53,456 nt of DNA from a bacterium (GTDB taxonomy: Archaea; Nanobdellota; Nanobdellia; SCGC-AAA011-G17; GW2011-AR17). The DNA is taken from positions 1 to 53,456 of the forward strand of contig JAUYPF010000035.1 of assembly GCA_030697685.1 (NCBI GenBank), given 5' to 3'. The position numbers and the translations under genes are program-made. The notes below the pieces were generated by a model. The model searched no databases. It saw only the letters and a list, made by a program, of their open reading frames with translations, and was not told the origin of the DNA. Shown piece by piece: positions 729-19,347 of this stretch. Within the stretch, counting starts at the first letter, position 1. Each line of letters starts with the position of its first letter.

Positions 729-803
729 GCCCCTGTAGTGTAGTTCGGTCAATCATTCCACCCTTTCGAGGTGAAGACCCGGGTTCAAATCCCGGCGGGG
801 GCA
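729..803 (+). tRNA. tRNA-Glu(TTC), no intron, CCA not encoded
   Basis: GCCCCTG/CGGGGGC acceptor stem, anticodon loop CT-TTC-GA, T arm CCGGG-TTCAAAT-CCCGG; TATA-like CTTATAAA at 695-702. Confidence 0.97.
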
Positions 804-847
804 CTATTATTATAATACCACAAGATAAAAATGAACAGCTATTCTTT

Positions 848-1626: not shown

Positions 1627-1641
1627 CGAAAGGTTTATAAA
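1627..1641 (+). promoter_or_regulatory. Archaeal BRE/TATA promoter of the 1664-10247 operon (leaderless start)
   Basis: CGAAAGG followed by TTTATAAA (1634-1641), 22 nt before ATG 1664. Confidence 0.7.
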
Positions 1642-1663
1642 TCTAAGTCATTGCTAAAATTTT

Positions 1664-3925
1664 ATGGTTAATAGGCACAGAGACTTCATAACAGCATACC
1701 AATTAACATGCACAGAACCAAGATTTGCAGAAGCCCTAGAAAGAAAATTTATGGGCTTTATAGGAAATGGAAAACAGCATGCTGGAAGAAGAGAAGCCTT
1801 TGAAATCACAAGAGAAGGTTATACCTGTATAATAAAACTCTCTAATAAAGAATATGTTTCTGATTTGGCTTCATTTTTACATAGAGAAGTAAAAGATGGA
1901 ACAATAATTCAAACAATAGATCCTACAAGAGCACAAGAAAATATTGAAGAATATAAAAGGAGAATAGGAAGTTTAGAAGAGCAACTTAGTCTAACAAGTG
2001 ATAAAATTGAAAGATTAGGAAGTGATTATACGGCAGTAGAAAAAAGGGCTACAGATCTTACAAGAACGAATGAAGAACTAACAATAATATACCAACAAAC
2101 AGAAGAAAGATATAAAAGAGAAAGAACAGATCTGAATCTAAGACTTACAGATTTAGAAACAGCACTTGCAAATAAAGATTCATTTGACAAAGAAATAGAA
2201 CAATTTAAAGAAATAGAAAAAACATGGAAAAAAGTTAAAGAATGTATTGGAGAAAGAGAGCTAGAAGAAATTATTGCAATAACCAGAGAAGGAAGTGAGG
2301 CCTATCTCAAAGCACAAATACCTAATTATAAAAATATGGAAAAACTAGGTGGAAGAGAACAAATTCTTGCAGAAAAAGGAAGAGCATTTGAAGAGACAGA
2401 CATACACCAAGAAATACAAAAAGCAGAAGGGATTATAAAATATTACGATAGGTTAAAAAAATATTTCACAGAAGATGGAATGATTACAGATGCAAAAGCA
2501 GCAGTAAAAGATTTAGCTATTCCAGAAGCACTTCTCCAAAGACTATTTGCAACGACAAAAGAAGAAGTGCCAAAATATGAAGTAATTTTAAGTAAAAGAG
2601 AAGAAGCAAAAAGGCAGCATCAACAAAAGCAGGGAATTGCTGAATCTTTAGAAAGATTAGAGAAAGAATATCAAGATATTGCTAATATACGACAAAAAAT
2701 AGAAAGAATACTAGAAACAAATAGAACTATAGCATTAGAACTAAAATTACTAGGTGAAGACACAGAAAATATTATATTTGAGGGGAGGCTTCCTCTACAA
2801 AAAACAAATGCAGAAACAGAACTAGGAAGAACATTGCAATTATGTATGCTTGCAACAATAACAGATAAAGAAAATTTTCCAGGTTTAGAATATAGTGAAA
2901 TAGATAACAAAAATGTAACATATCAATTTAAACTTCCAAAAACAAACGCACAAACAGCACTACAAACAACACATACACTTGCAGAAAGAATGACTACTCT
3001 TCTTGGAGAAACGGACTTTGGACTTGCAGGAGGAAAACTAAGAATTCTTTATTCAGGGATAATTGGTGAGCTCCCAACAATAGAAACAGAACAAAGACCT
3101 GTAATAACAATAAAAGAAAATACTCCAAAAGTACAAAATATAGAACTAAATCAAGGATCTAAAATTCTAAGTTATGAAGATTTTATAAAATTACAAGATA
3201 AAGAAGCAGGCCAGTTAGGTATATATCTTCCAACAATAGAAGACTTAAATCTATCTCAAAGAAAAGAGGCAACAGAAGGAACAAAATTAAACCATCTTGG
3301 AGCAAGAGAAATTATTCTTGCAATGGCAGAAACAGGAAGAGTAAGATCTAAAAAAATTGCTCCGTACATAAAAGAAAGAATAAAAGAATTGTATGGATTT
3401 CATATTTTAGAAGAAAAAGAAAGAGATTTTAGATATTCTTCTAGAATGAATGGATGGCTTGCAAGTTTATCCACAGATTTTATTAAAAAACTAGACAATT
3501 TTATTCGTCCTAATCCTTGTTTTAATGTTACAGAAAGAATAATCAAAAGAGATCTAAAAGAGTATAATGAAGAAGATAGAAAACTTCTTTATACTTTCAA
3601 ATCAAAAATTCCATTAGGGTTGCATACAGTCAGGCAAGCAATAGAATATGAAAAAATGGCTGAAGAAAGAATTTCTGCAGGAGAAAGTTTTTCACCTGGA
3701 GAATCAAGATCTATTCTAGCAGTAAAAGCAGCAAGGGTTTTTGATCATTATGTCATCCTTGACATTCTTAAAAAGAATCCAACAACTGCAAATGAACTCC
3801 TATACAATGTTCAAGCTTTTCTACCAATGGCAAATGAGGAATTTATTGGAAGAAGTCTACATAGATTGAGAAAAGCAAAGTTAGAAGATAGATTAGAAAG
3901 AAGAATAGGAGTGCTGCATAGATGA
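1664..3925 (+). CDS. Large coiled-coil protein with probable C-terminal winged helix-turn-helix domain(s)
   Basis: Heptad-rich E/K/L segments at about aa 90-350; C-terminal VILDILKKNPTTANELL...FIGRSLHRLRKAKL fits a wHTH pattern; no Walker A motif. Confidence 0.6.
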   Translation: MVNRHRDFITAYQLTCTEPRFAEALERKFMGFIGNGKQHAGRREAFEITREGYTCIIKLSNKEYVSDLASFLHREVKDGTIIQTIDPTRAQENIEEYKRRIGSLEEQLSLTSDKIERLGSDYTAVEKRATDLTRTNEELTIIYQQTEERYKRERTDLNLRLTDLETALANKDSFDKEIEQFKEIEKTWKKVKECIGERELEEIIAITREGSEAYLKAQIPNYKNMEKLGGREQILAEKGRAFEETDIHQEIQKAEGIIKYYDRLKKYFTEDGMITDAKAAVKDLAIPEALLQRLFATTKEEVPKYEVILSKREEAKRQHQQKQGIAESLERLEKEYQDIANIRQKIERILETNRTIALELKLLGEDTENIIFEGRLPLQKTNAETELGRTLQLCMLATITDKENFPGLEYSEIDNKNVTYQFKLPKTNAQTALQTTHTLAERMTTLLGETDFGLAGGKLRILYSGIIGELPTIETEQRPVITIKENTPKVQNIELNQGSKILSYEDFIKLQDKEAGQLGIYLPTIEDLNLSQRKEATEGTKLNHLGAREIILAMAETGRVRSKKIAPYIKERIKELYGFHILEEKERDFRYSSRMNGWLASLSTDFIKKLDNFIRPNPCFNVTERIIKRDLKEYNEEDRKLLYTFKSKIPLGLHTVRQAIEYEKMAEERISAGESFSPGESRSILAVKAARVFDHYVILDILKKNPTTANELLYNVQAFLPMANEEFIGRSLHRLRKAKLEDRLERRIGVLHR

Positions 3926-5421
3926 AATCCCTCAAAGACCTTATTAAAGGGCAGCAACCTATTGGAGAAGCATTAAGGGATTTTAGAGCACAAGATTTGA
4001 ATATGGAAGATCTTCTTGAGGGAAGACTTTCCAGAGAAGAAATAACAAAAACACTAGGGCCATCATTAGATCTTGCAGCATTTGGAACAGGTGAATTAGG
4101 AGGAAGAATTATTGTTATTGAACCACCAGATACTTTAGTAGATGGAAAAGGAAGACCAGTACGATTATACTATGTCATTGGTGGAGAGACTTTAACTATT
4201 AATGGAGAACCAGGAGATAGGCCTTTTTATAAAAGAAAAGATATGGAAGCCATACTCCCATTAGACTTAACTGAAATTACTATAGATACAAGTGGACAAC
4301 CACAAATTCAAAGAAAAACAAAAGAAACAGAAAAAAGAAATCCAAATACACCAGAGAAATTAAAAGAAGGAAAAGCAACAACAAAAAGAAGAACAACACA
4401 ATTTGATGCATTATTATATTCTTACTTACTGAAGAACGGAGATGATATTGCACACTTAGTAAATGGTTTAGAAGAAATACCTAAAACAAAACAAGCTATT
4501 TCTGGAGAAGCAGCATTAAGAGAACATTTCCCAGAAGCCGATGCACTTCTTGCATTTGGTGTAACAAAAGTGCATTCATTAGAATCCTGGTTACAAGAAA
4601 TGGTTCAAGAAAGAATTTCAAATTTAAAAAGAGATATCAAAGAGTTTTATACAACAACAGAAGGAAAAGAATTTGTAAGAGAATTTATGAACCAAGAATT
4701 TCCACAAACATATGATCATGCACCAGAAGTCATGAAATGGATCATTAATTATGGAATAGAAGGAAGACAGCCTCAATTTTTACTTTCTGCAATAGGTGCA
4801 GGAATCTTAGGAGAAGAAAAAGAAAAGAAACAAGTATATAGATTCTGGGGCAGAGTTGCAAAAGCAACAAGAGAAGCTGCATCAAATACAGTATTAATCG
4901 AAAAAGGATATTTAGAAGGAAAACATAACATTGATGATATTTATATACCATTATTAAGAGAATTAAGAAATAGAAGAGGGATTTATTCTGGATCTACAGT
5001 TGAAGCAAGTTTATTTGGCCTGTTTGGTTTAGGATTATTACTAGATTCTAAAGGAGAAGTCATAAACGCACATTCTCTAAACAGAACATATACAGAAACA
5101 GGAAGATACATTATAAATAATTATCCTACTATAAAAATTTTAATTGATGAAATGGTAAAAGATGAGGAATTAAGAAAAAAATATTCCTCTTCTAAAACTA
5201 CATCAGGGCTTATTCAAAGAGCAATTCTAAACGAAGAAAGTTTACGTGAAAGACTAACCATGACCAAAGCAGAGAAAGGAGAAATGAAAACAGTTCCTAT
5301 TTCAGAAGCATTACTAAATTTTGTCATCCCAGCATATTTACGAGTAGAAATAGATAGATACAAACCATGTATGACATTAGAAACAGATGCACATTTCTTA
5401 AGAAACACCATGAGTGAGTGA
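3922..5421 (+). CDS. Hypothetical protein (possible MerR/Xis-like HTH at the N-terminus)
   Basis: 499-aa ORF, ATGA overlap with the upstream stop, SD AGGAG; LSREEITKTLG...PFYKRKDMEAI weakly resembles excisionase-type HTH. Confidence 0.55.
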   Translation: MKSLKDLIKGQQPIGEALRDFRAQDLNMEDLLEGRLSREEITKTLGPSLDLAAFGTGELGGRIIVIEPPDTLVDGKGRPVRLYYVIGGETLTINGEPGDRPFYKRKDMEAILPLDLTEITIDTSGQPQIQRKTKETEKRNPNTPEKLKEGKATTKRRTTQFDALLYSYLLKNGDDIAHLVNGLEEIPKTKQAISGEAALREHFPEADALLAFGVTKVHSLESWLQEMVQERISNLKRDIKEFYTTTEGKEFVREFMNQEFPQTYDHAPEVMKWIINYGIEGRQPQFLLSAIGAGILGEEKEKKQVYRFWGRVAKATREAASNTVLIEKGYLEGKHNIDDIYIPLLRELRNRRGIYSGSTVEASLFGLFGLGLLLDSKGEVINAHSLNRTYTETGRYIINNYPTIKILIDEMVKDEELRKKYSSSKTTSGLIQRAILNEESLRERLTMTKAEKGEMKTVPISEALLNFVIPAYLRVEIDRYKPCMTLETDAHFLRNTMSE

Positions 5422-5426
5422 GGCAT

Positions 5427-8400
5427 ATGGCACTCAACCTAAACAAATATTCTCTTGATGATCGTTTTAGAATGATTATGAGAGAAATAAAAAGAGTTCC
5501 AGATGAAGAAGAACTCCAAGAAGTTCCTTATTTTTCTGAAGTTCTAGAAACGATTACCAAAACCTACGGTACTTTAGAAAAATATCTCAGAACAACAAAT
5601 ATTGCAAATACTTTACAAGTGGAACAATCACCTTTCCCCTCAGTACAACAACTACATACAATGGTTTCCATAACCGAGAGAGAAAGAATTATCATTGGTG
5701 ACGAACCAGGAACAAGAAAAACTGCAGCAGCAGGTTTAGCAAAATATTCTATAGAAAGAAAATTAGGAAAGAAAATAAAAACACTTGTGCTTTGTCCAAG
5801 CTATTTGATTAGTAATTGGATGATGAGATTAGATGAATATCATCAAGAAGAACCAAGTTATTGTGTCATTACACCTGAAGATAAATGGGAAGATTTGAAA
5901 AGAGCAGCTTCTAATGATGTTGATTATATTTTTGTCAGCTATGATTTGCTTTACAAGGATGTAGAAACAACAAATGGTGGAAGCAAAGAAGAATATGAAC
6001 TTCACGCAACTATTTTAGCACAACAATATACAAATGACAAAACAGCTGCATGGAAACATCATCAAGGATTAAATTGTAATTATGGAGCAACAGAAGAAAG
6101 TACAATAGAAGAAATATGCTTAGGTATTGCTTTCGAAGAAGCAGTCCAAACAGAAAATGAAAACAAAAAAGTATGTGATACATTAGAAAGAATACTTACA
6201 AGAAATGATCCTGATGAGACAACAAAACATGATTTTTATTTAATTGCAGATGAATTTCACAACGTACGAGATGCAAGCCTAAAGAAAAAAACAAATGCTT
6301 TTTACAGACTTGCACAAAGAGCAAGGTTCGCAGCTTTTCTTTCTGGAACAAAAACACCAGACAACATAGGAGATATTGCAGTTATAGCGTCTATCCTAGA
6401 TAATCCACGATTCCCAAACCCTAAAGATTTTATTGATGCAGTAGGAAATAATCCCGCAGCAGTAAGAAGATTTTATGCACAATGGGAAAAAAAGCCAGTA
6501 TTAAAAACAACAGATATTGGTGAAGATAATATTCCAAAAGCAAAAGATATCACATTCACATTAAACGAAAAAGAATTCTCATTGTACTTTGCAATTCAGA
6601 ACCATTCTGAAATAGCAGAAGCAGAAAAACTTCTTCTTCTGCGCTATGTTACACTAGATGCAGCATTAATTGATCCCAGAAGATACTTAGGAAGTCCTAG
6701 TATGAGAAATAAATTGCTAAAAATTCAAAAAGAAGAACCAGAAGCTTTTGAAGATATAACAACAAATAATTCTACAAGATATCAAACATTAGAGGGAATA
6801 ATTGAAAATATTCCCTATCCTGAGAAGTATGTTATTTTTTCAAAATTTTCCCTTGGAGTTATTCCAGTTATTGAAGCAAGGCTAAGAGCAAAAGGAGAAA
6901 ATATTGTAAAGGTAGATCAAACTATTGGAACTGAAAATAAAAAAATAAAATTAACAACAAAAGAAATAGCAGAATTAAAAGAAAAAGGGATATATAGAGA
7001 ACAAAAATACAGAGTAGACTTAAAAAGATCCGAAAAAGAAGCAATACATCTAGCAGGAAGAAGAACCTTAAGGTATTCTGAAAGGGACATTGCAGTGCTT
7101 ACAGCACAGTGTAATCCAGACATTGATGGAGTACTTGCAACATACGGAACACTACGAGAAGGAAGAGACCTCACCGCAGTAAATCACATTATCAAGCTGG
7201 ACAGAGAATATCAACCAGGAGTAGAAAGGCAAGCAATTGGAAGGGCTGCTGGAAGAAGTGGACAGCAAAGAAAATGTCACATTTATGCACTACGTGCAAA
7301 TGCAACACAAGATGATGGAATTGAAGATCATGTAAATAGAAAAGAAAGAACCATTATCCTAGCAGAATCCTGCGAAGAAAGAATTTCTTCAGAAGATGCA
7401 CAAAGTCTCGCAGGAAAAATTCGGCCACATAACGAAAGAGAGATTCGTCCATATATGTTCAGCTCACACCAATTAGTACGAATGATTTTAGGAAATTTAA
7501 GTGGAGCAGGAGTTTCTGCAATGGAAGCTCTTGTAGAACAAGGACTAGGTGAACTCTTTGCACAAAATTATAATTACAAATGGGAACTAAGTAGTTCTGC
7601 AAACATTGGAAGGCTCATCGCAATGACCCTAGCATTTAAAGGAAAAGAATTCTCACAAGTGATTGAGTTAGGATCTGGTCCAGCTCAAATGGCAAGAGTC
7701 CTCGGAAGAACAACAACATGTATGGATTATTTAAAGGAACAACTAGAAATAGGAAAAAAAGAATGTGAAAAACTAGGATTCCAAATTAAAACACAACAAG
7801 GGTCTATACACCGAATACCACTCCCATCAGAAACATATGATCTTTCTGTTGCATCAAACGTTTTCAACTTATTAACACTCCAAGAAAGAGCAGAAGCAAT
7901 GAGAGAAAATCAAAGAATCCTCAAAAAAGGAGCAAGAGGAATTTGGGTATTCCCACCAAGTGCAACAGAACTAGAAGCAGGAGATTTAAGTATTATACAA
8001 AAGCTAAAAAGAGATTTTAAGAAAGCAGGTTTTAGTATTGATGAAGAAGTTACTGGAAGATATGTAGCAAGAAATGCTATTGACCTCAATACAGGAAATG
8101 AAATTACAAGTGAAACAAAAACCTTTCTTCTTGCAGCAGAAAATACAGAAAAAGGGATTATCGAAGAAGGAATGTTTGAATTAAAAGTAGACTATTCTTA
8201 TAGCAAAGGAAAAGGAAAACAAAGAAACGTACTAGAACCAATGCAGGGAATCCCACAAGCACAAGCAGAAGTCTGCTTAGCATTTGAAAATATAGACTCA
8301 GGTCTGGAATTAAAAACAAAAGAAAAACCAATTTCAAGAGAAGAGCTCAGGAGAAGAATTAATCAAGGTCTAAAAACGGGAGAATTAGCAGAAGAGGATA

Positions 8401-8444
8401 TTGCAAAAATAATTAGAGCCCTTATTGAAGGAGAACGAAATTGA
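5427..8444 (+). CDS. SNF2-family SF2 ATPase/translocase fused to a C-terminal class I SAM-dependent methyltransferase
   Basis: Motif I GDEPGTRKT, Ia LVLCPSYLISNW, II LIADEFH, III LSGT, IV YVIFSKF, V EGRDLT, VI QAIGRAAGRSGQ; MTase IELGSGP...MD...GSIHRIPLPSETYDL...RILKKG. ATG 5427 preferred over GTG 5418. Confidence 0.88.
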   Translation: MALNLNKYSLDDRFRMIMREIKRVPDEEELQEVPYFSEVLETITKTYGTLEKYLRTTNIANTLQVEQSPFPSVQQLHTMVSITERERIIIGDEPGTRKTAAAGLAKYSIERKLGKKIKTLVLCPSYLISNWMMRLDEYHQEEPSYCVITPEDKWEDLKRAASNDVDYIFVSYDLLYKDVETTNGGSKEEYELHATILAQQYTNDKTAAWKHHQGLNCNYGATEESTIEEICLGIAFEEAVQTENENKKVCDTLERILTRNDPDETTKHDFYLIADEFHNVRDASLKKKTNAFYRLAQRARFAAFLSGTKTPDNIGDIAVIASILDNPRFPNPKDFIDAVGNNPAAVRRFYAQWEKKPVLKTTDIGEDNIPKAKDITFTLNEKEFSLYFAIQNHSEIAEAEKLLLLRYVTLDAALIDPRRYLGSPSMRNKLLKIQKEEPEAFEDITTNNSTRYQTLEGIIENIPYPEKYVIFSKFSLGVIPVIEARLRAKGENIVKVDQTIGTENKKIKLTTKEIAELKEKGIYREQKYRVDLKRSEKEAIHLAGRRTLRYSERDIAVLTAQCNPDIDGVLATYGTLREGRDLTAVNHIIKLDREYQPGVERQAIGRAAGRSGQQRKCHIYALRANATQDDGIEDHVNRKERTIILAESCEERISSEDAQSLAGKIRPHNEREIRPYMFSSHQLVRMILGNLSGAGVSAMEALVEQGLGELFAQNYNYKWELSSSANIGRLIAMTLAFKGKEFSQVIELGSGPAQMARVLGRTTTCMDYLKEQLEIGKKECEKLGFQIKTQQGSIHRIPLPSETYDLSVASNVFNLLTLQERAEAMRENQRILKKGARGIWVFPPSATELEAGDLSIIQKLKRDFKKAGFSIDEEVTGRYVARNAIDLNTGNEITSETKTFLLAAENTEKGIIEEGMFELKVDYSYSKGKGKQRNVLEPMQGIPQAQAEVCLAFENIDSGLELKTKEKPISREELRRRINQGLKTGELAEEDIAKIIRALIEGERN

Positions 8445-9601
8445 GCCTTGATCAAATAGCACTAGGCCTTGTACGTGATTATCCCCAGATTAAATACTCT
8501 GTGTATGCAACATTACAAGGCTATGCCATGTATTGGGATGAAGAAAAAAAAGATAGTACAGAAAATCCAAGAAATTTTCCCAAAAATTCTTATTATCATA
8601 GCTGGAAAAGTTTTATAGAAAAATTAAAAACAAAAACAGAATGGAAAATCCCCAAATATAGATTACCAGACACTCCTATATTTGAGAAACAAAATATTTT
8701 AGCACAAGCATTAGCAAATAAAAAAATAGTAAGAGATGCATTTTTAGAAGAGATTAGTCCAGAATTACAAAGGACATTAGCAGACATCCTTTTTGAAAGA
8801 AATATTATTGCAGAAAGTGCAGATCTTTTTATTGATACATTTGATTACGAAAAAGTAAAAAAAGATCCAGAAAGAAATCCATTTGAACATTTTTTAGAAC
8901 ACTTTGATATAGACCAAAGATCCCACAAACAAAAACCAAAAAAATCCTATTTACCATTGCTCACAAGATTAAAAAATGAAGGAGATATCTGGGAAGAAAT
9001 CTATATAGAAAGACTAAAAGAAAAAGATGAGATTCTTGCACAAAGGATACAAAGTATTTTCGAAGGAATAGAAGCAAATAATTTTGACGAGCAAGAAAGA
9101 ATGAAAATTGTAGAACTCCTAACAGAAAAAGGCTGTGTAGGACTTGTAGAAAGACTTGGGCAAGATGCATATGATATTCTTGTTGCAATGTATGGTGAAG
9201 AACAATTTCCAGAAGAAAAAAGGCATATTTTGAGTTCAGGAAAAGCAATACGCCCATACTTAGGAAAATGCAGAAGAAAGATGATACGATCTGAATTTAA
9301 TATTTGGGAAAGGGACCTTATAAGAACCTTAAAAGAAAAAGGATTAAGGCCTTCAATTTATGATAAAAATATTACTGTACAAAGAATTTTACAAACAACA
9401 TTTCTTGCACCATATATAGAAATGGCCTCTAAAGGAGAAGATCCAATAGTCCCATTACAAGCACAGACAAAAGAAGAAGATGTACTTACAAAAAAACTTG
9501 CACGCTATGGATTAGAACATTTCCAAATGATGAGAGAAATCCAAGATTACCCAGAAATTAGCCATACTTTAGCAATAGTACGGGCAAAGAAAGATTTATA
9601 A
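8441..9601 (+). CDS. Hypothetical alpha-helical protein
   Basis: 386-aa ORF; TTG start overlaps the upstream stop (TTGA) with GGAG upstream. Confidence 0.7.
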   Translation: MSLDQIALGLVRDYPQIKYSVYATLQGYAMYWDEEKKDSTENPRNFPKNSYYHSWKSFIEKLKTKTEWKIPKYRLPDTPIFEKQNILAQALANKKIVRDAFLEEISPELQRTLADILFERNIIAESADLFIDTFDYEKVKKDPERNPFEHFLEHFDIDQRSHKQKPKKSYLPLLTRLKNEGDIWEEIYIERLKEKDEILAQRIQSIFEGIEANNFDEQERMKIVELLTEKGCVGLVERLGQDAYDILVAMYGEEQFPEEKRHILSSGKAIRPYLGKCRRKMIRSEFNIWERDLIRTLKEKGLRPSIYDKNITVQRILQTTFLAPYIEMASKGEDPIVPLQAQTKEEDVLTKKLARYGLEHFQMMREIQDYPEISHTLAIVRAKKDL

Positions 9602-9623
9602 ATCAGAGGAGAAAAAAAAACAT

Positions 9624-10247
9624 ATGGCATCAAGAGTAGAAGAATTATCCAGAGCAGCAAAAAAACTCTCTCCAGAGGATAGAGAAAGGTTAGCAAGAGA
9701 ACTAACAAGAACACTAACACAAAAAGTATCTCAAGCATTTAATTGGACAAGAGACCCTTTTACTGTGGCAGAAGATCTTTGCGGCGCTGTTCTAAAAAGC
9801 AACATACTCTCTGAAGAAGAATATAGAATCACAGATGTTCGTGCTTGGAGAGAAATGGATGCAAAAAGAGCAGGGATATATGATATTGTTCATAGAGAAG
9901 CAGGAACAATACATGCATTTCCTTTGAGAAGATACAAGCCAAGAGCTGAAAACGAAGAAAAAGCCCAGCCATATCACATTTTGTCTATCATTACAAATTC
10001 CCCTGCATATCCAATAGGTCTTATAACACTAAATGGAATAGTATTAGGAAAAGAAAGAATTTCTGCAACAGATATTTGGGAGAGATTAAATATTCCAGAA
10101 AGTGACATCATGAACATTCCATTTTCAGAAAGAGTAAAGATAGAACTACCAGATCTAAGAACACAAAACCTAAGAAGTACATATGAACTAAAAGAATTCT
10201 CTAATCTGAAAGTAAAAGGATATAAGATCACTTTACATTCTCTATAA
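9624..10247 (+). CDS. AAG/MPG (3-methyladenine DNA glycosylase)-like protein, probably catalytically altered, with an N-terminal helical extension
   Basis: FNWTRDPFTVAEDLCGAVL...YRITDVRAW...AGTIHAF...LSIITNSPAYPIGLITL follows the AAG pattern FFxRDxxxVARDLLGxxL...GRIVETEAY...PGxxYVY...LNVVT...AAVLIR; SD GAGGAG. Confidence 0.55.
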   Translation: MASRVEELSRAAKKLSPEDRERLARELTRTLTQKVSQAFNWTRDPFTVAEDLCGAVLKSNILSEEEYRITDVRAWREMDAKRAGIYDIVHREAGTIHAFPLRRYKPRAENEEKAQPYHILSIITNSPAYPIGLITLNGIVLGKERISATDIWERLNIPESDIMNIPFSERVKIELPDLRTQNLRSTYELKEFSNLKVKGYKITLHSL

Positions 10248-10334
10248 ATATCCAATATTGTAACCCCTTATAAGCAATAGAAATAACAAAATTAAATACA
10301 AAAGCATTTAAACAATAACTAAAATTTTACAGCT

Positions 10335-10745
10335 ATGCCATTAGAAGCAAAAGTAGACGGTAAAGCAATAGAATATACACCCAGTCCTATACAAACACTT
10401 TTTGAACGCCTTAGTTATAATCCTGAAAGAAATTTCTATACCAGAAGATTAGAAAATAATACTTTAGTAAGAATTTCTCCATCATATTATCACAGAGATA
10501 TATTCAAATATAAAGCTACAATATCTAATGATCTAAGAAATATTGGTGTAAGACTTTCAGAACCTCTTAGAGAATATTTAACAATTCATACCCAAAAAGA
10601 AAAAGAAATTATTGTTGAAAGAGATATGAAAAAAGGAAGTATACTTGTCAAACAAAACATCAAAAAAGAGAGATTCACAAGTAGAAGAATTTTTACATTT
10701 GATGATGATGTTGAATTAGAAAGATATGTGAGAGGTTTACTTTAA
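10335..10745 (+). CDS. Hypothetical protein
   Basis: 136-aa ORF preceded by BRE/TATA-like AAAGCATTTAAA. Confidence 0.65.
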   Translation: MPLEAKVDGKAIEYTPSPIQTLFERLSYNPERNFYTRRLENNTLVRISPSYYHRDIFKYKATISNDLRNIGVRLSEPLREYLTIHTQKEKEIIVERDMKKGSILVKQNIKKERFTSRRIFTFDDDVELERYVRGLL

Positions 10746-10746
10746 C

Positions 10747-11100
10747 ATGTATCCATTCAGAGACGCTATTTTAGAAACAATAAACGAACAAAAAAGTGGT
10801 ATTCTCTTTGGCCTAGCAACAATAGGAATAAGCGCAGCTTTAGGGGCATATTTATTCCCAAGAGAAGTCTCTAATATTGGAATTTATGATAAAGATCTTG
10901 ATGGATATGTTGATGTTATAGAAGATAAAAATTGGAAGATTATTCTCACGAATGATAGTAAAAATCTTATACAAGAAGAGAACAGAGATTTTCTATATAT
11001 CACCTGTTATTACTCTGAAACTATTTCTATGAAGAACATTGGGACAGAATTTGCACAAAGAGTAAGGCCATATTTAGAAGACTGCCTTAAAAAATATTAA
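10747..11100 (+). CDS. Single-TM membrane protein with a DxDxDG Ca-binding-like loop
   Basis: ILFGLATIGISAALGAYLF followed by DKDLDGYVD. Confidence 0.6.
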   Translation: MYPFRDAILETINEQKSGILFGLATIGISAALGAYLFPREVSNIGIYDKDLDGYVDVIEDKNWKIILTNDSKNLIQEENRDFLYITCYYSETISMKNIGTEFAQRVRPYLEDCLKKY

Positions 11101-12266
11101 TTTTTTTCTAAATCAGCAATATCAATCAAAGTTTTTGTATCATAGCCCATAGAATCTAATAAATTACAAGGATGTATGCAATCACAGGCTTTCGTTTTCT
11201 TCCGCATATCATCTGCATCTTGTGATTTCCAAAGCGCAGCAAAATTCATATCAAAATCATTCAAGTTTGCAAAAGGCCGCGTTGGCTCACACACAGAAAC
11301 GCCACCATTTGGATAGATAACACCAAAAGTCTTTCCTGCAGTGCAAGTAACAACCCGTTTTTCAGTTGCAAGCATTTGTATAGAATATTTCCATTTCAAT
11401 TTCTGAAAATTCTGCCATATCTTATCTCTATGTGTTTCAACTTCTTTTAATAACAAAGTATCATATAACTCTTGCAATTTTTCAACTGCTACAGATTCAG
11501 TCTTTCCTACTTCACCATCAAGATGACTAACAACATCTTTTGGAACTCTATAGGTTCCTAAATGCGCACCCCTAAGAATATTAAACTTATGCATGACTTC
11601 AGGAAATTTTGTTTTTATTTCTCCCACAAAAACAGGAAGTAAATCATAATTTGCAGTACAAATAGTTGTCATCACAGAAACTTCTAATTTTTTTGTAGTT
11701 TTTCGTAACTCAAGCAATTGTTTCAAAGTCTCTGAAGCTCTTTGATAACATTTAGGAATTCTTCTGAATTTATCATGCATTTCTTCAGGACCATCTAAAG
11801 AAACCTGCACATGAAAATATAAATCAGGGCACTCCGCAAGAATCTTTTTGGTCATAGCCAAAATTCTTTCAGTAGTCATTCCATTCGTAGGAGTAGTAAT
11901 TCTTCGTGTTCCATTAATTGTATGAAAAGCAATAATAATCTCATCAAGATCTTTTCGTAAATAAGGTTCTCCACCTGTAAGCATAAGCGTTCGCAAAGGA
12001 TGCTTCAAAGTTTTCGCAATTCTTCTCATATCATCTAAACTAAGTTCTGGTTTTCCAGTATTCAATTCTTCCCAATAAAAACAATGATCACATTTTGCAT
12101 TACAATAATTTGTCACATACAAAGTCATATTTATAGGCGTCTGTAATTTCTGCATTTGTACAACTCTAATTTTATTTGCTGCACGAATACCAGCATCACG
12201 CAAAGGCTTTGGTAAAGAACCTAAAGTACGAAAACCAATCTCTTCTATCTTTGTTGCTATAGCCAT
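11097..12266 (-). CDS. Radical SAM protein with SPASM/twitch domain
   Basis: CNAKCDHC, LTGGEP, SLDG, CTAG...YPNGGVSVCE, CDCIHPC. Confidence 0.92.
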   Translation of the reverse strand: MAIATKIEEIGFRTLGSLPKPLRDAGIRAANKIRVVQMQKLQTPINMTLYVTNYCNAKCDHCFYWEELNTGKPELSLDDMRRIAKTLKHPLRTLMLTGGEPYLRKDLDEIIIAFHTINGTRRITTPTNGMTTERILAMTKKILAECPDLYFHVQVSLDGPEEMHDKFRRIPKCYQRASETLKQLLELRKTTKKLEVSVMTTICTANYDLLPVFVGEIKTKFPEVMHKFNILRGAHLGTYRVPKDVVSHLDGEVGKTESVAVEKLQELYDTLLLKEVETHRDKIWQNFQKLKWKYSIQMLATEKRVVTCTAGKTFGVIYPNGGVSVCEPTRPFANLNDFDMNFAALWKSQDADDMRKKTKACDCIHPCNLLDSMGYDTKTLIDIADLEKN

Positions 12267-13252
12267 CTTTTTCTCGTCTCTTTCAAATAATCTTTCCTTT
12301 TAAATCTTATGTACATGGTCTCTGAAAAAAAAGCAAAATTATAGAAGTATGCTTTTACAAGTGAATATGCATAATCCAAACCAACAATCAAAAATTTAGA
12401 AGTGTTACTAGATTCTTGTACTTTCTTCTCTTGTGCAGAAACCCACTTTATCACATCTTTATTATTTTGTTTTAGCTCTCGAAATTTCTTTGGACTAAAT
12501 GCATAATAAACATCAAGAAGAGGTAAAAAAGGAATAAGAACAAAAGGATAATTCTTCAAGAATATTTTTATTCTATTCTTATGAAAAACATAGAACACAC
12601 TCTTTCTTCCTTTATCAGAAACATAATGGTATACTAAACATCTCGAATCAACAACACTCTGCAATCCCATTTGTCTCAATTTATATCCTATTTCTTTATC
12701 CTCACCTGCATACATAATAGAAGTATCAAAGCCACCGCATGCTTCAAGATCTTTTTTTCGCATCATACAATTACACGTTGCAATATAACCACAAGGATAT
12801 AATTGATAATCATCTGTCTCCATAATATAAGTAGATGTTTCACAATTTCCAGTAATTTCTTTCCTTTTTGTAATCACACCATTATCTACTTTATATGCTT
12901 CTCCACCCAAGGCACCAATCTCTGGATGCTCTTGAAGAATCTTTACCATATTTGAAATAACAGAATTATGAACCATTTCAATATCTGAATCAAGAAAATG
13001 CACATAGCTCCCAGTAGAAAGTATCACTCCTTGATTTTTTGCAATACTAACTCCAAGATTTTCTTTATTCCTATGCAAGCGCACAGAAGGAAAAGACTTC
13101 TCCACCAATCCCACAGAACCATCTGTACTTCCATTATCAATAACAATCACTTCAAAGTTTTTATAGTCCTGTTTCTCTACACTCTTCAAAGTTCTTCGTA
13201 AATCTTCTTTCCTATTCCATGAAGCAATAATGACTGAAACGTGAGGAAACAT
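12257..13252 (-). CDS. GT2 family glycosyltransferase
   Basis: VSVIIASWN, VIDNGSTDGS, FLDSD, GGFD...AGEDKEI. Confidence 0.93.
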   Translation of the reverse strand: MFPHVSVIIASWNRKEDLRRTLKSVEKQDYKNFEVIVIDNGSTDGSVGLVEKSFPSVRLHRNKENLGVSIAKNQGVILSTGSYVHFLDSDIEMVHNSVISNMVKILQEHPEIGALGGEAYKVDNGVITKRKEITGNCETSTYIMETDDYQLYPCGYIATCNCMMRKKDLEACGGFDTSIMYAGEDKEIGYKLRQMGLQSVVDSRCLVYHYVSDKGRKSVFYVFHKNRIKIFLKNYPFVLIPFLPLLDVYYAFSPKKFRELKQNNKDVIKWVSAQEKKVQESSNTSKFLIVGLDYAYSLVKAYFYNFAFFSETMYIRFKRKDYLKETRKRWL

Positions 13253-19239: not shown

Positions 19240-19347
19240 GGGCCCGTAGCTCAGCCTGGTAGAGCACCTGCCTTGCAAGTAGGGGGCCTCGGGTTCGAAA
19301 GTGAATCCCCAATATTAAGAGGATCCTCGGAAGTCCCGACGGGTCCA
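19240..19347 (+). tRNA. tRNA-Ala(TGC) with a 34-nt intron (19300-19333) at position 59/60
   Basis: GGGCCCG/CGGGTCC acceptor stem, CT-TGC-AA loop; BHB with TTCG/CGGA helix and AAA, AGT bulges; splicing restores TTCGAAT. Confidence 0.92.

Follow-up and report, generated by a model that had tools for sequence, protein, structure and literature searches.

What would a small groundwater archaeon do with a cluster of five genes in which a predicted DNA motor is fused to a methyltransferase and a DNA glycosylase fold appears without its catalytic glutamate? The cluster, whose genes we call g1 to g5, lies at positions 1664 to 10247 of a 53,456-nucleotide (nt) contig (JAUYPF010000035.1), the whole of which was analyzed and is referred to here as the window. 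Its 16S and 23S rRNA genes and RNase P RNA identify the window as archaeal; its guanine-plus-cytosine (GC) content is ~32%, and it comes from a genome of 1.07 Mb in 65 contigs that is 92% complete. The carriers of the cluster are all DPANN archaea, which have tiny genomes and depend on hosts, and to our knowledge few defense or epigenetic systems have been recognized in these organisms. We found that the five genes form one conserved operon. Its core is the pair of g3, a predicted SNF2-family ATPase-methyltransferase, and g5, a protein with the AAG/MPG fold, and homologues of this pair are spread more widely in the class than the operon itself. We tentatively read the operon as an accessory system for marking and surveying DNA.

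The five genes are co-oriented and tightly coupled. An earlier reading of this stretch, made from the letters alone (the sequence-only reading), had listed the same five forward-strand open reading frames (ORFs) and described overlapping or nearly abutting stop and start codons with Shine-Dalgarno motifs, and both descriptions hold. The g1/g2 and g3/g4 junctions are 4-nt overlaps, g4 starting with TTG; the g2 stop codon lies 5 nt upstream of the probable g3 start, ATG 5427, which fits the 1005-amino-acid (aa) product of the gene caller; g4 and g5 are 22 nt apart; and the starts of g2, g3, g4, and g5 are each preceded by a GGAG-type motif at 4 to 12 nt. All five genes occur in the same order in 7 of 7 distinct loci with enough contig, the window counted. 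The other complete loci are those of G001, G010 (on two contigs), G064, G090, G091, and one metagenome species (L045, L047, and L049) with ~70% identity to the window; a further locus, L048, repeats that of G064 and so was not counted as distinct. Gene lengths in the relatives are similar and their junctions equally tight, even though G090 and G091 belong to a different family from the window, and four loci cut by contig ends (G013, G063, L046, and L050) contain the expected remaining genes. The gene neighborhood that the earlier reading had suggested checking is thus conserved.

Within this narrow range of carriers the unit is rare and patchy. A g4 profile matched 7 of 240 genomes of the order and, within the window's own genus, 3 of the 11 genomes searched, leaving unmatched a genome (G004) that is 100% complete. 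Scanning 185,579 species genomes gave five operon loci and a metagenome scan gave six, and word-index protein searches returned close relatives only.

Among the five proteins, g3 alone matches known families in Pfam, and its domains identify it as a SNF2-family ATPase fused to a class I S-adenosylmethionine (SAM) methyltransferase, the fusion that the sequence-only reading had proposed. Both parts score above the Pfam cut-offs: SNF2-rel_dom at 32.9 bits (cut-off 24.9) and Helicase_C at 25.9 (23.5) for the ATPase, and Methyltransf_11 at 46.6 (21.2) and Methyltransf_25 at 45.2 (27) for the methyltransferase. Residues R100, K101, and T102 of Walker A, D278, E279, and H281 of the DExH motif, and Q605 and R609 of motif VI are invariant across 6 orthologues, as are G752, G754, P755, and A756 of the SAM site and D770 of acidic motif II. 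The closest solved chain to the ATPase is 1z63, a Snf2/Rad54-family helicase (E 5.4e-7), and the best Protein Data Bank (PDB) sequence matches of the methyltransferase are uncharacterized class I enzymes (3dlc, E 1.7e-4); its NCBIfam matches are of the UbiE, ArsM, and BioC types, every one below cut-off. DNA amino-methyltransferases of the N6A and N4C types are marked by a (D/N/S)PP(Y/F/W) catalytic motif. By eye, no DPPY-type motif is present in the g3 sequence, which has just FPPS at 845 to 848, and g3 has no N6_Mtase or MethyltransfD12-type match in Pfam. In the G001 copy of g3 (L013:8986-9255) an in-frame TGA occurs near residue 59.

The second member of the core pair, g5, is confirmed on a predicted model to have the AAG/MPG glycosylase fold, in agreement with the earlier suggestion that it resembles AAG. 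The AlphaFold2 (AF2) model has a predicted local distance difference test score (pLDDT) of 93.5, and its nine best Foldseek rows are all human AAG (probability 1.00, TM about 0.5). The VIA comparison with human AAG gave Z values of 12.1 to 13.4, the top match having a root mean square deviation of 3.4 over 158 residues and aligning g5 32-207 to AAG 80-284, while the next fold, a formyltransferase C-terminal domain, reached only Z 6.7. Because the single g5 sequence matches no Pfam family at E<=0.01, and so falls below the PF02245 threshold, its link to that family is visible only at the profile level. When 1.84 billion representatives were searched with a profile built from 7 g5 orthologues, 174 proteins matched at E<=0.001, and PF02245 matches were found in 88 of 150 scanned sequences, these being the window's g5 and 149 of the best 150 of the 174 matches (P0005 was omitted, being taken as the window's own g5).

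In human AAG, Glu125 activates the attacking water by deprotonating it; the base is held by Tyr127 and Tyr159 (PMC12347255). In our alignment, R73 of g5 stands at the position of Glu125, W75 at that of Tyr127, and F99 at that of Tyr159, so that g5 shares the fold of the human enzyme, keeps an aromatic residue at both tyrosine positions, and has arginine in place of the glutamate. Across the 150-row alignment of g5-profile matches, the catalytic column is Glu in 44 rows, Asp in 15, another residue in 89, and a gap in 2, and an aromatic residue (Y, W, or F) occupies column 75 in 147. The pattern is sharper among the 17 MPG-like proteins linked to a SNF2 gene: 16 of them have R, Q, L, Y, A, G, or S in the Glu125 column, and all 17 have W, Y, or F at the aromatic position. 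The equivalents of Arg182 and of His136 are also lost in the g5 alignment. In short, g5 has lost the catalytic glutamate yet kept the aromatic base-stacking residues, and the idea in the sequence-only reading that g5 is a reader of modified bases gains from this loss.

Canonical MPGs differ from g5 in several respects. The three from the same genomes read IVETEAY, and g5 lacks their ~14-residue insert and has an added N-terminal helical hairpin; moreover, the g5 of the five-gene operon is always beside a SNF2-methyltransferase gene, while this holds for 0 of 15 canonical MPGs. In a FastTree tree of 155 rows (rows of <140 aa dropped), the canonical Glu-bearing MPGs fall in one clade of 27 rows (SH-like 98, a type of support that is weak evidence) and the SNF2-linked rows all lie outside it. 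In one genus (G013, G064, and G063), a canonical MPG gene (PF02245, E ~1e-59, IVETEAY) faces g5 convergently and extends ~14 nt into its 3' end (L014:2826-3377 and L025:13556-14107 on the minus strand, and L028:3486-4037 on the plus strand); this arrangement may be a remnant of the duplication from which g5 arose, or may be due to chance. The canonical MPG of G000 is on a separate contig.

Going beyond the earlier reading, we found that two further architectures in the class contain the core pair: homologues of g3 and g5 are spread wider than the five-gene operon, and g1, g2, and g4 are specific to it. Long SNF2 proteins of ~1140 to 1185 aa, from other families of the class, are the same fusion: hhalign gave a probability of 100 (E 4.8e-44) over g3 residues 69 to 927, SAM motif included. 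These proteins, which differ from g3 by a ~270-aa N-terminal extension, are carried by 7 of 401 sampled genomes. In 6 of the 7 a short MPG-like gene (157 to 179 aa, without the extra N-terminal hairpin of g5) is adjacent, counting G350, where it is one gene away, and in the seventh (G454) the SNF2 and MPG-like genes are both at contig ends; one HTH (helix-turn-helix)-containing family lies downstream in 7 of 7 loci. The third architecture combines short SNF2-methyltransferases of 707 to 785 aa with multi-HTH proteins (G518, G040, G490, and G336), and in G518 the order is MPG-like, multi-HTH, SNF2-methyltransferase, multi-HTH. The g5 family aligns to the G518 MPG-like protein with an hhalign probability of 94.4; a complex prediction for the full-length G518 SNF2-methyltransferase with this protein gave no usable answer, its score being 0.00 against a mark of 0.32. 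The sister architectures thus share a homologous SNF2-methyltransferase and a Glu-less MPG-like protein with the operon, and their partners differ from g1, g2, and g4.

The association was also approached from the MPG side. An MPG-like profile run on the 401 genomes of the class matched 75 of them, and the best 30 loci were read. Among 15 Glu-less loci, 12 lie near a SNF2-methyltransferase gene (10 within 1.5 kb on either side and 2 a further gene away), while a SNF2-methyltransferase gene lies within 1.5 kb of none of the 15 canonical (ETE) loci; these are counts only, from loci that overlap the ones found earlier and include kin that are not independent. Two of the Glu-less loci, G174 and G454, reach contig edges.

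Several features of these sister loci are recorded here in their own right. The multi-HTH proteins that flank the short SNF2-methyltransferases have an uncommon build: they are 390 to 673 aa long and match 20 to 48 different HTH Pfam families each (L044:5297-7012, 9368-10540, and 10537-12558; L015:10045-11217 and 6388-7728). In G490, genes for a 678-aa HNH_repeat protein and a 137-aa DUF488-N3a ("active subclade") protein come after the short SNF2-methyltransferase (L059:8138-10174 and 10581-10994), and the core may here have yet another set of partners. The multi-HTH/SNF2-methyltransferase/multi-HTH trio of G040 is adjoined, in this genome only, by Mre11-like and Rad50-like genes (L015:2864-6071). 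In G174, a 2257-aa ORF whose only domain is a C-terminal SLT transglycosylase (L106:4701-11471) stands directly upstream of the Glu-less MPG-like gene, and the contig ends ~200 nt past that gene.

The remaining three proteins take the place that multi-HTH DNA-binding proteins hold in the two sister architectures. Like g5, they match no family in Pfam, PADLOC, NCBIfam, or PHROGs. The coiled coil and winged HTH that the sequence-only reading had given to g1 came down to weak coiled-coil Pfam matches (a Crescentin rod in 2 of 5 orthologues, tropomyosin in 1, and ATG16 in 1), the winged HTH not being confirmed, and among PDB sequences g1 matched designed coiled coils only (E 0.05 to 0.8). Orthologues of g1 were found in G010, G001, G064, and G091, and that of G090 was matched at E 1.1e-16 by a profile built without it. 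For g2, orthologues were identified and aligned, and there was no PDB sequence match at E<=10 and no usable ESM Atlas match; the G010 copy (L012:4491-5962) is split by a frameshift in a lysine- and arginine-rich linker. The TTG start of g4 coincides in position with the MSL... starts of its orthologues. Its AF2 model (pLDDT 74.8) consists of helices only, and it has no PDB sequence match at E<=10 and no credible neighbor in fold searches: the best Foldseek E was 0.07, and the best wide VIA match, at Z 6.4, is confined to a 56-residue helical hairpin. ESM Atlas matches for g4 were discarded, the Atlas's own g4 model having a pLDDT of only 0.40. No relationship of g1, g2, or g4 to the multi-HTH partners of the sister architectures was detectable (hhalign probabilities of <=2.4%), and two profile matches in a small local set, from g2 to a 275-aa G409 protein (E 0.0019) and from g4 to a 199-aa HTH protein of G135 (E 0.012), were not borne out.

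Table 1. Features of the operon and its surroundings, in window coordinates
Feature	Position	Strand	Description
tRNA-Glu	729-804		Upstream of g1, 860 nt before the operon
BRE/TATA-like element GAAAGGTTTATAAATC	1628..1643	+	Read from sequence; 36 nt before g1 ATG
g1	1664..3925	+	ORF, 753 aa, coiled-coil-rich
g2	3922..5421	+	ORF, 499 aa
g3	5418..8444	+	ORF, 1008 aa; 1005 aa from probable start ATG 5427
g3, predicted SNF2 ATPase core	5622..7367	+	Residues ~69-650, long insert in lobe 1
g3, predicted methyltransferase domain	7515..8162	+	Residues ~700-915; Pfam match 748-840
g4	8441..9601	+	ORF, 386 aa; all-alpha AF2 model
Second BRE/TATA-like element GAAAGATTTATAAATC	9589..9604	+	Overlaps g4 stop; 35 nt before g5 ATG
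g5	9624..10247	+	207 aa; AAG/MPG fold on the predicted model, N-terminal helical hairpin (residues ~1-35)

The earlier reading had also placed the whole operon behind one promoter consisting of a B recognition element (BRE) and a TATA box. An element of this kind is present: GAAAGGTTTATAAATC is probably the promoter of a leaderless or near-leaderless g1 transcript, and (A/G)AAAG-N-TTTATAAA elements that resemble it stand before g1 in L049, L012, and L025. There is another element before g5, GAAAGATTTATAAATC, with 15 of 16 bases the same as in GAAAGGTTTATAAATC. The pattern for these elements matches just these two sites in the whole 53-kb window, with 0.01 expected by chance, an expectation that is not independent of the sites since the pattern was built from them. 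A TATA-like (T/C)TTATAAAT lies 25 to 35 nt before g5 in 5 of 5 loci read of the window's family, so that g5 may also have its own internal promoter; no such element was found in 2 of 2 loci of the second family, where g5 abuts g4. A scan of the window for sigma-70 promoters and terminators, with models ill-suited to archaea, gave nothing above shuffled sequence. Among sequencing runs, none of RNA was listed as containing the sequence; those listed were DNA runs from a single groundwater-metagenome study, and one of them may be the source.

The surroundings of the operon differ from genome to genome. In the window it is flanked by the tRNA-Glu gene, present where the earlier reading had put it, and by genes matching no known function; in G001 by RuBisCO and radical SAM genes; in G010 by PIN, MazF, PIN_2, and Bro-N genes; in G064 by genes for the proteasome, FttA, a canonical MPG, and SMC; and in G090 and G091 it has RNA polymerase/NusA-like genes on one side and RDD/S49 peptidase genes on the other. 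The proposal that the operon sits in a tRNA-adjacent accessory island found no support: no att-like, tRNA-derived direct repeats were found at the operon, no integrase is among the window's Pfam matches, and GC content across the operon is 0.31 to 0.38, as elsewhere in the window; tRNA adjacency in the relatives was not searched. The gene just upstream (848-1486) has homologues in G005 and G009, both without the operon. No empty site was definable, there being no flank gene beyond this one that is syntenic in G005.

Downstream of g5 are two small ORFs (10335-10745, 136 aa, and 10747-11100, 117 aa) that match no known family; the closest metagenome relative has both at the corresponding position (with 67-68% and 40% identity), and neither was seen after g5 in the other genomes. 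They are followed on the minus strand by a radical SAM/SPASM gene that overlaps a family-2 glycosyltransferase gene (11097-13252), and radical SAM genes flank the operon in G001 too. Far from the operon, the 16S-23S spacer contains a short Rfam tRNA match of 34.5 bits without an ARAGORN call (19240-19297), which may be a divergent or interrupted tRNA.

Of the explanations considered, we favor one in which the operon is accessory and ATP-driven and serves to mark and survey DNA, in a defense-like or epigenetic way and not as part of core repair. We hold this reading tentatively, giving it somewhat less than an even chance, and it is suggested by a unit that is rare, patchy, differently placed between genomes, and modular. 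In such a system, g3 would track along DNA using ATP and transfer a methyl group to it. A modified or methylated purine would be flipped out and held by g5 without being excised, g5 thereby sensing the mark or coupling the motor to it, and g1, g2, and g4 would target or scaffold the complex. A bolder and more specific version, which we consider rather unlikely, is that the SNF2-methyltransferases and their MPG-like partners make up a so far unrecognized, ATP-driven class of DNA base methylation in DPANN archaea that both writes and reads. The motor and methyltransferase would place a ring-nitrogen methylpurine, the disarmed glycosylase would read it, and the DNA-binding partners would be exchangeable; the pair would then tell self from foreign DNA, or condemn foreign DNA to the active MPG of the cell.

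A number of observations weigh against an accessory marking and surveillance system. At most loci the neighbors are housekeeping genes (RNA polymerase, proteasome, FttA, and RuBisCO), and toxin-like neighbors are confined to G010 and G518. No nuclease or other effector domain was found in any of the five proteins in Pfam, PADLOC, NCBIfam, or PHROGs, and g1, g2, and g4, three of the five parts, carry no family or fold assignment. The methyltransferase of g3 appears to be of a generic small-molecule, RNA, or protein type, and the absence of a DPPY-type motif leaves DNA as a substrate that we infer. The g5 of G001 keeps its glutamate, the 1 exception among 17 SNF2-linked proteins. On the MPG side, where the overlap among loci already qualifies the counts, one Glu-less gene (G494) is beside an IS66 transposase gene with no SNF2 gene nearby and another (G013:C6) is beside a multi-HTH gene without a SNF2-methyltransferase. 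Finally, the in-frame TGA in g3 of G001 and the frameshift in g2 of G010 are possible signs of decay or of assembly error.

The loss of the glutamate in 16 of 17 SNF2-linked proteins speaks against a role in the sensing or repair of alkylation damage, which we regard as unlikely. On that account g5 would recognize lesions, either alkylpurines or abasic sites, and protein-bound DNA would be cleared or remodeled by the SNF2 motor for base excision repair, the excision itself being left to a canonical MPG elsewhere. The AAG fold of g5 fits such a role, as do the canonical MPGs that are convergent to g5 in G013, G063, and G064 or encoded on another contig in G000; SNF2 ATPases such as Rad54 and CSB act in repair, and the related SNF2-methyltransferase of G040 is beside Mre11/Rad50 genes, an adjacency seen in that genome only. 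It is not apparent, however, what a fused methyltransferase would do in repair, and a repair unit would hardly be expected to be so rare, missing from all but 7 of 240 genomes of the order and from 8 of 11 searched genomes of its own genus, the complete G004 among them. The same patchiness, even inside one genus, speaks against an epigenetic or chromatin regulator, in which an ATP-dependent DNA methyltransferase would write a heritable mark and g5 would read it to control expression or chromosome organization in the manner of DNMT5. This is a doubtful alternative in our view, in spite of the mostly housekeeping neighbors, the intact motifs of a motor and methyltransferase in one chain, the apparently noncatalytic partner with a base-flipping fold, the multi-HTH DNA-binding proteins of the sister architectures, and the want of an effector nuclease among the family matches. 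The wholesale exchange of partners between architectures is more typical of conflict systems, and the methyltransferase is not of a known DNA-methyltransferase class.

This last point could also mean that the methyltransferase acts on RNA or protein, the operon then remodeling a ribonucleoprotein or modifying a chromatin protein with g5 as a nucleic acid-binding adaptor. All methyltransferase matches are of the Methyltransf_11/25 class or to UbiE/ArsM/BioC-type NCBIfam models, orthologues weakly match Methyltransf_8 (the Rrp8 rRNA methyltransferase family), and the DPPY-type motif is missing. SNF2-family motors, on the other hand, are double-stranded-DNA translocases, AAG-fold proteins bind DNA, and HTH DNA-binding proteins serve as partners in the sister architectures, which makes a non-DNA substrate improbable. 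Least probable of all is that the operon is cargo of an integrated virus or plasmid, for instance an anti-restriction or replication module inserted by the tRNA-Glu gene. This tRNA gene 860 nt upstream, the variable genomic location, a match of g3 to the PHROGs "DNA helicase" family phrog_62 (E 1.6e-18), and the Bro-N gene near the G010 locus would suit mobile cargo. The lack of an integrase among the Pfam matches and of tRNA-derived direct repeats, a GC content equal to that of the rest of the window, and the position of the G090/G091 locus between RNA polymerase/NusA-like and RDD/S49 peptidase genes would not, nor would pattern scans of viral_contigs, which have limited reach and returned no relatives of g2, g3, g4, or g5 (collections of plasmid and phage records lay outside these scans).

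Taken as a whole, the interpretation offered by the sequence-only reading survives in its conserved unit, its fusion protein, and its AAG fold, and not in its winged HTH or its tRNA island. If a marking and surveillance role is correct, the base-flipping AAG fold would have been put to a new use, as a sensor rather than as an enzyme. Since the Glu-less MPG-like group is large (89 of 150 rows with a residue other than Glu or Asp), such a role may be general.

That reading had recognized no described system with this gene set, and the operon matches none. We found no description of the gene set in the literature covered, which excludes supplementary files. PADLOC, run on the window and its orthologues (four loci), returned no system and only partial SNF2-domain matches to DpdE, DrmD, ZorD, BrxHI/HII, and HmaA, at 12 to 35 bits for the g3 of the window; the other 4 window proteins and 12 orthologue proteins had no match. 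For DISARM this amounts to a partial DrmD match on g3 (28.5 bits, residues 585-644) with no DrmA, DrmB, or DrmC/DrmE; for Zorya, whose ZorD carries a Mrr-like nuclease, to a helicase C-lobe match to ZorD models of at most 23.7 bits with no ZorA, ZorB, or ZorC; for Dpd, which makes 7-deazaguanine DNA modifications, to a partial DpdE match (35.2 bits, g3 residues 92-184) with no other Dpd protein (the TGT-like DpdA, DpdB, or DpdC); and for BREX to weak BrxHI/HII matches of orthologue helicases, with no PglX, PglZ, or BrxC and no match at all for the window proteins. Given partial helicase matches and nothing else, the operon belongs to none of DISARM, Zorya, Dpd, and BREX. Together with Hma, these systems resemble it in being multigene operons with an SNF2-like motor, a patchy distribution, and, in some, a methyltransferase. 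They differ from it in that its methyltransferase shares a chain with the motor and is not of the N6A, N4C, or C5 DNA type, and in that none of them has a glycosylase-fold partner.

Parallels to g3 itself may be fungal DNMT5, in which a DNA methyltransferase is joined to an SNF2 ATPase, and the type ISP restriction-modification enzymes such as LlaGI, which have nuclease, ATPase, and methyltransferase in one chain. Like g3, both carry a methyltransferase on the same chain as an ATP-driven DNA motor. The comparison, made by description and not by sequence, sets their C5 or gamma-N6A methyltransferases against the generic class I domain of g3, which has neither a nuclease nor a target-recognition domain; nor are those enzymes known to have a partner like the apparently dead glycosylase of the archaeal operon.

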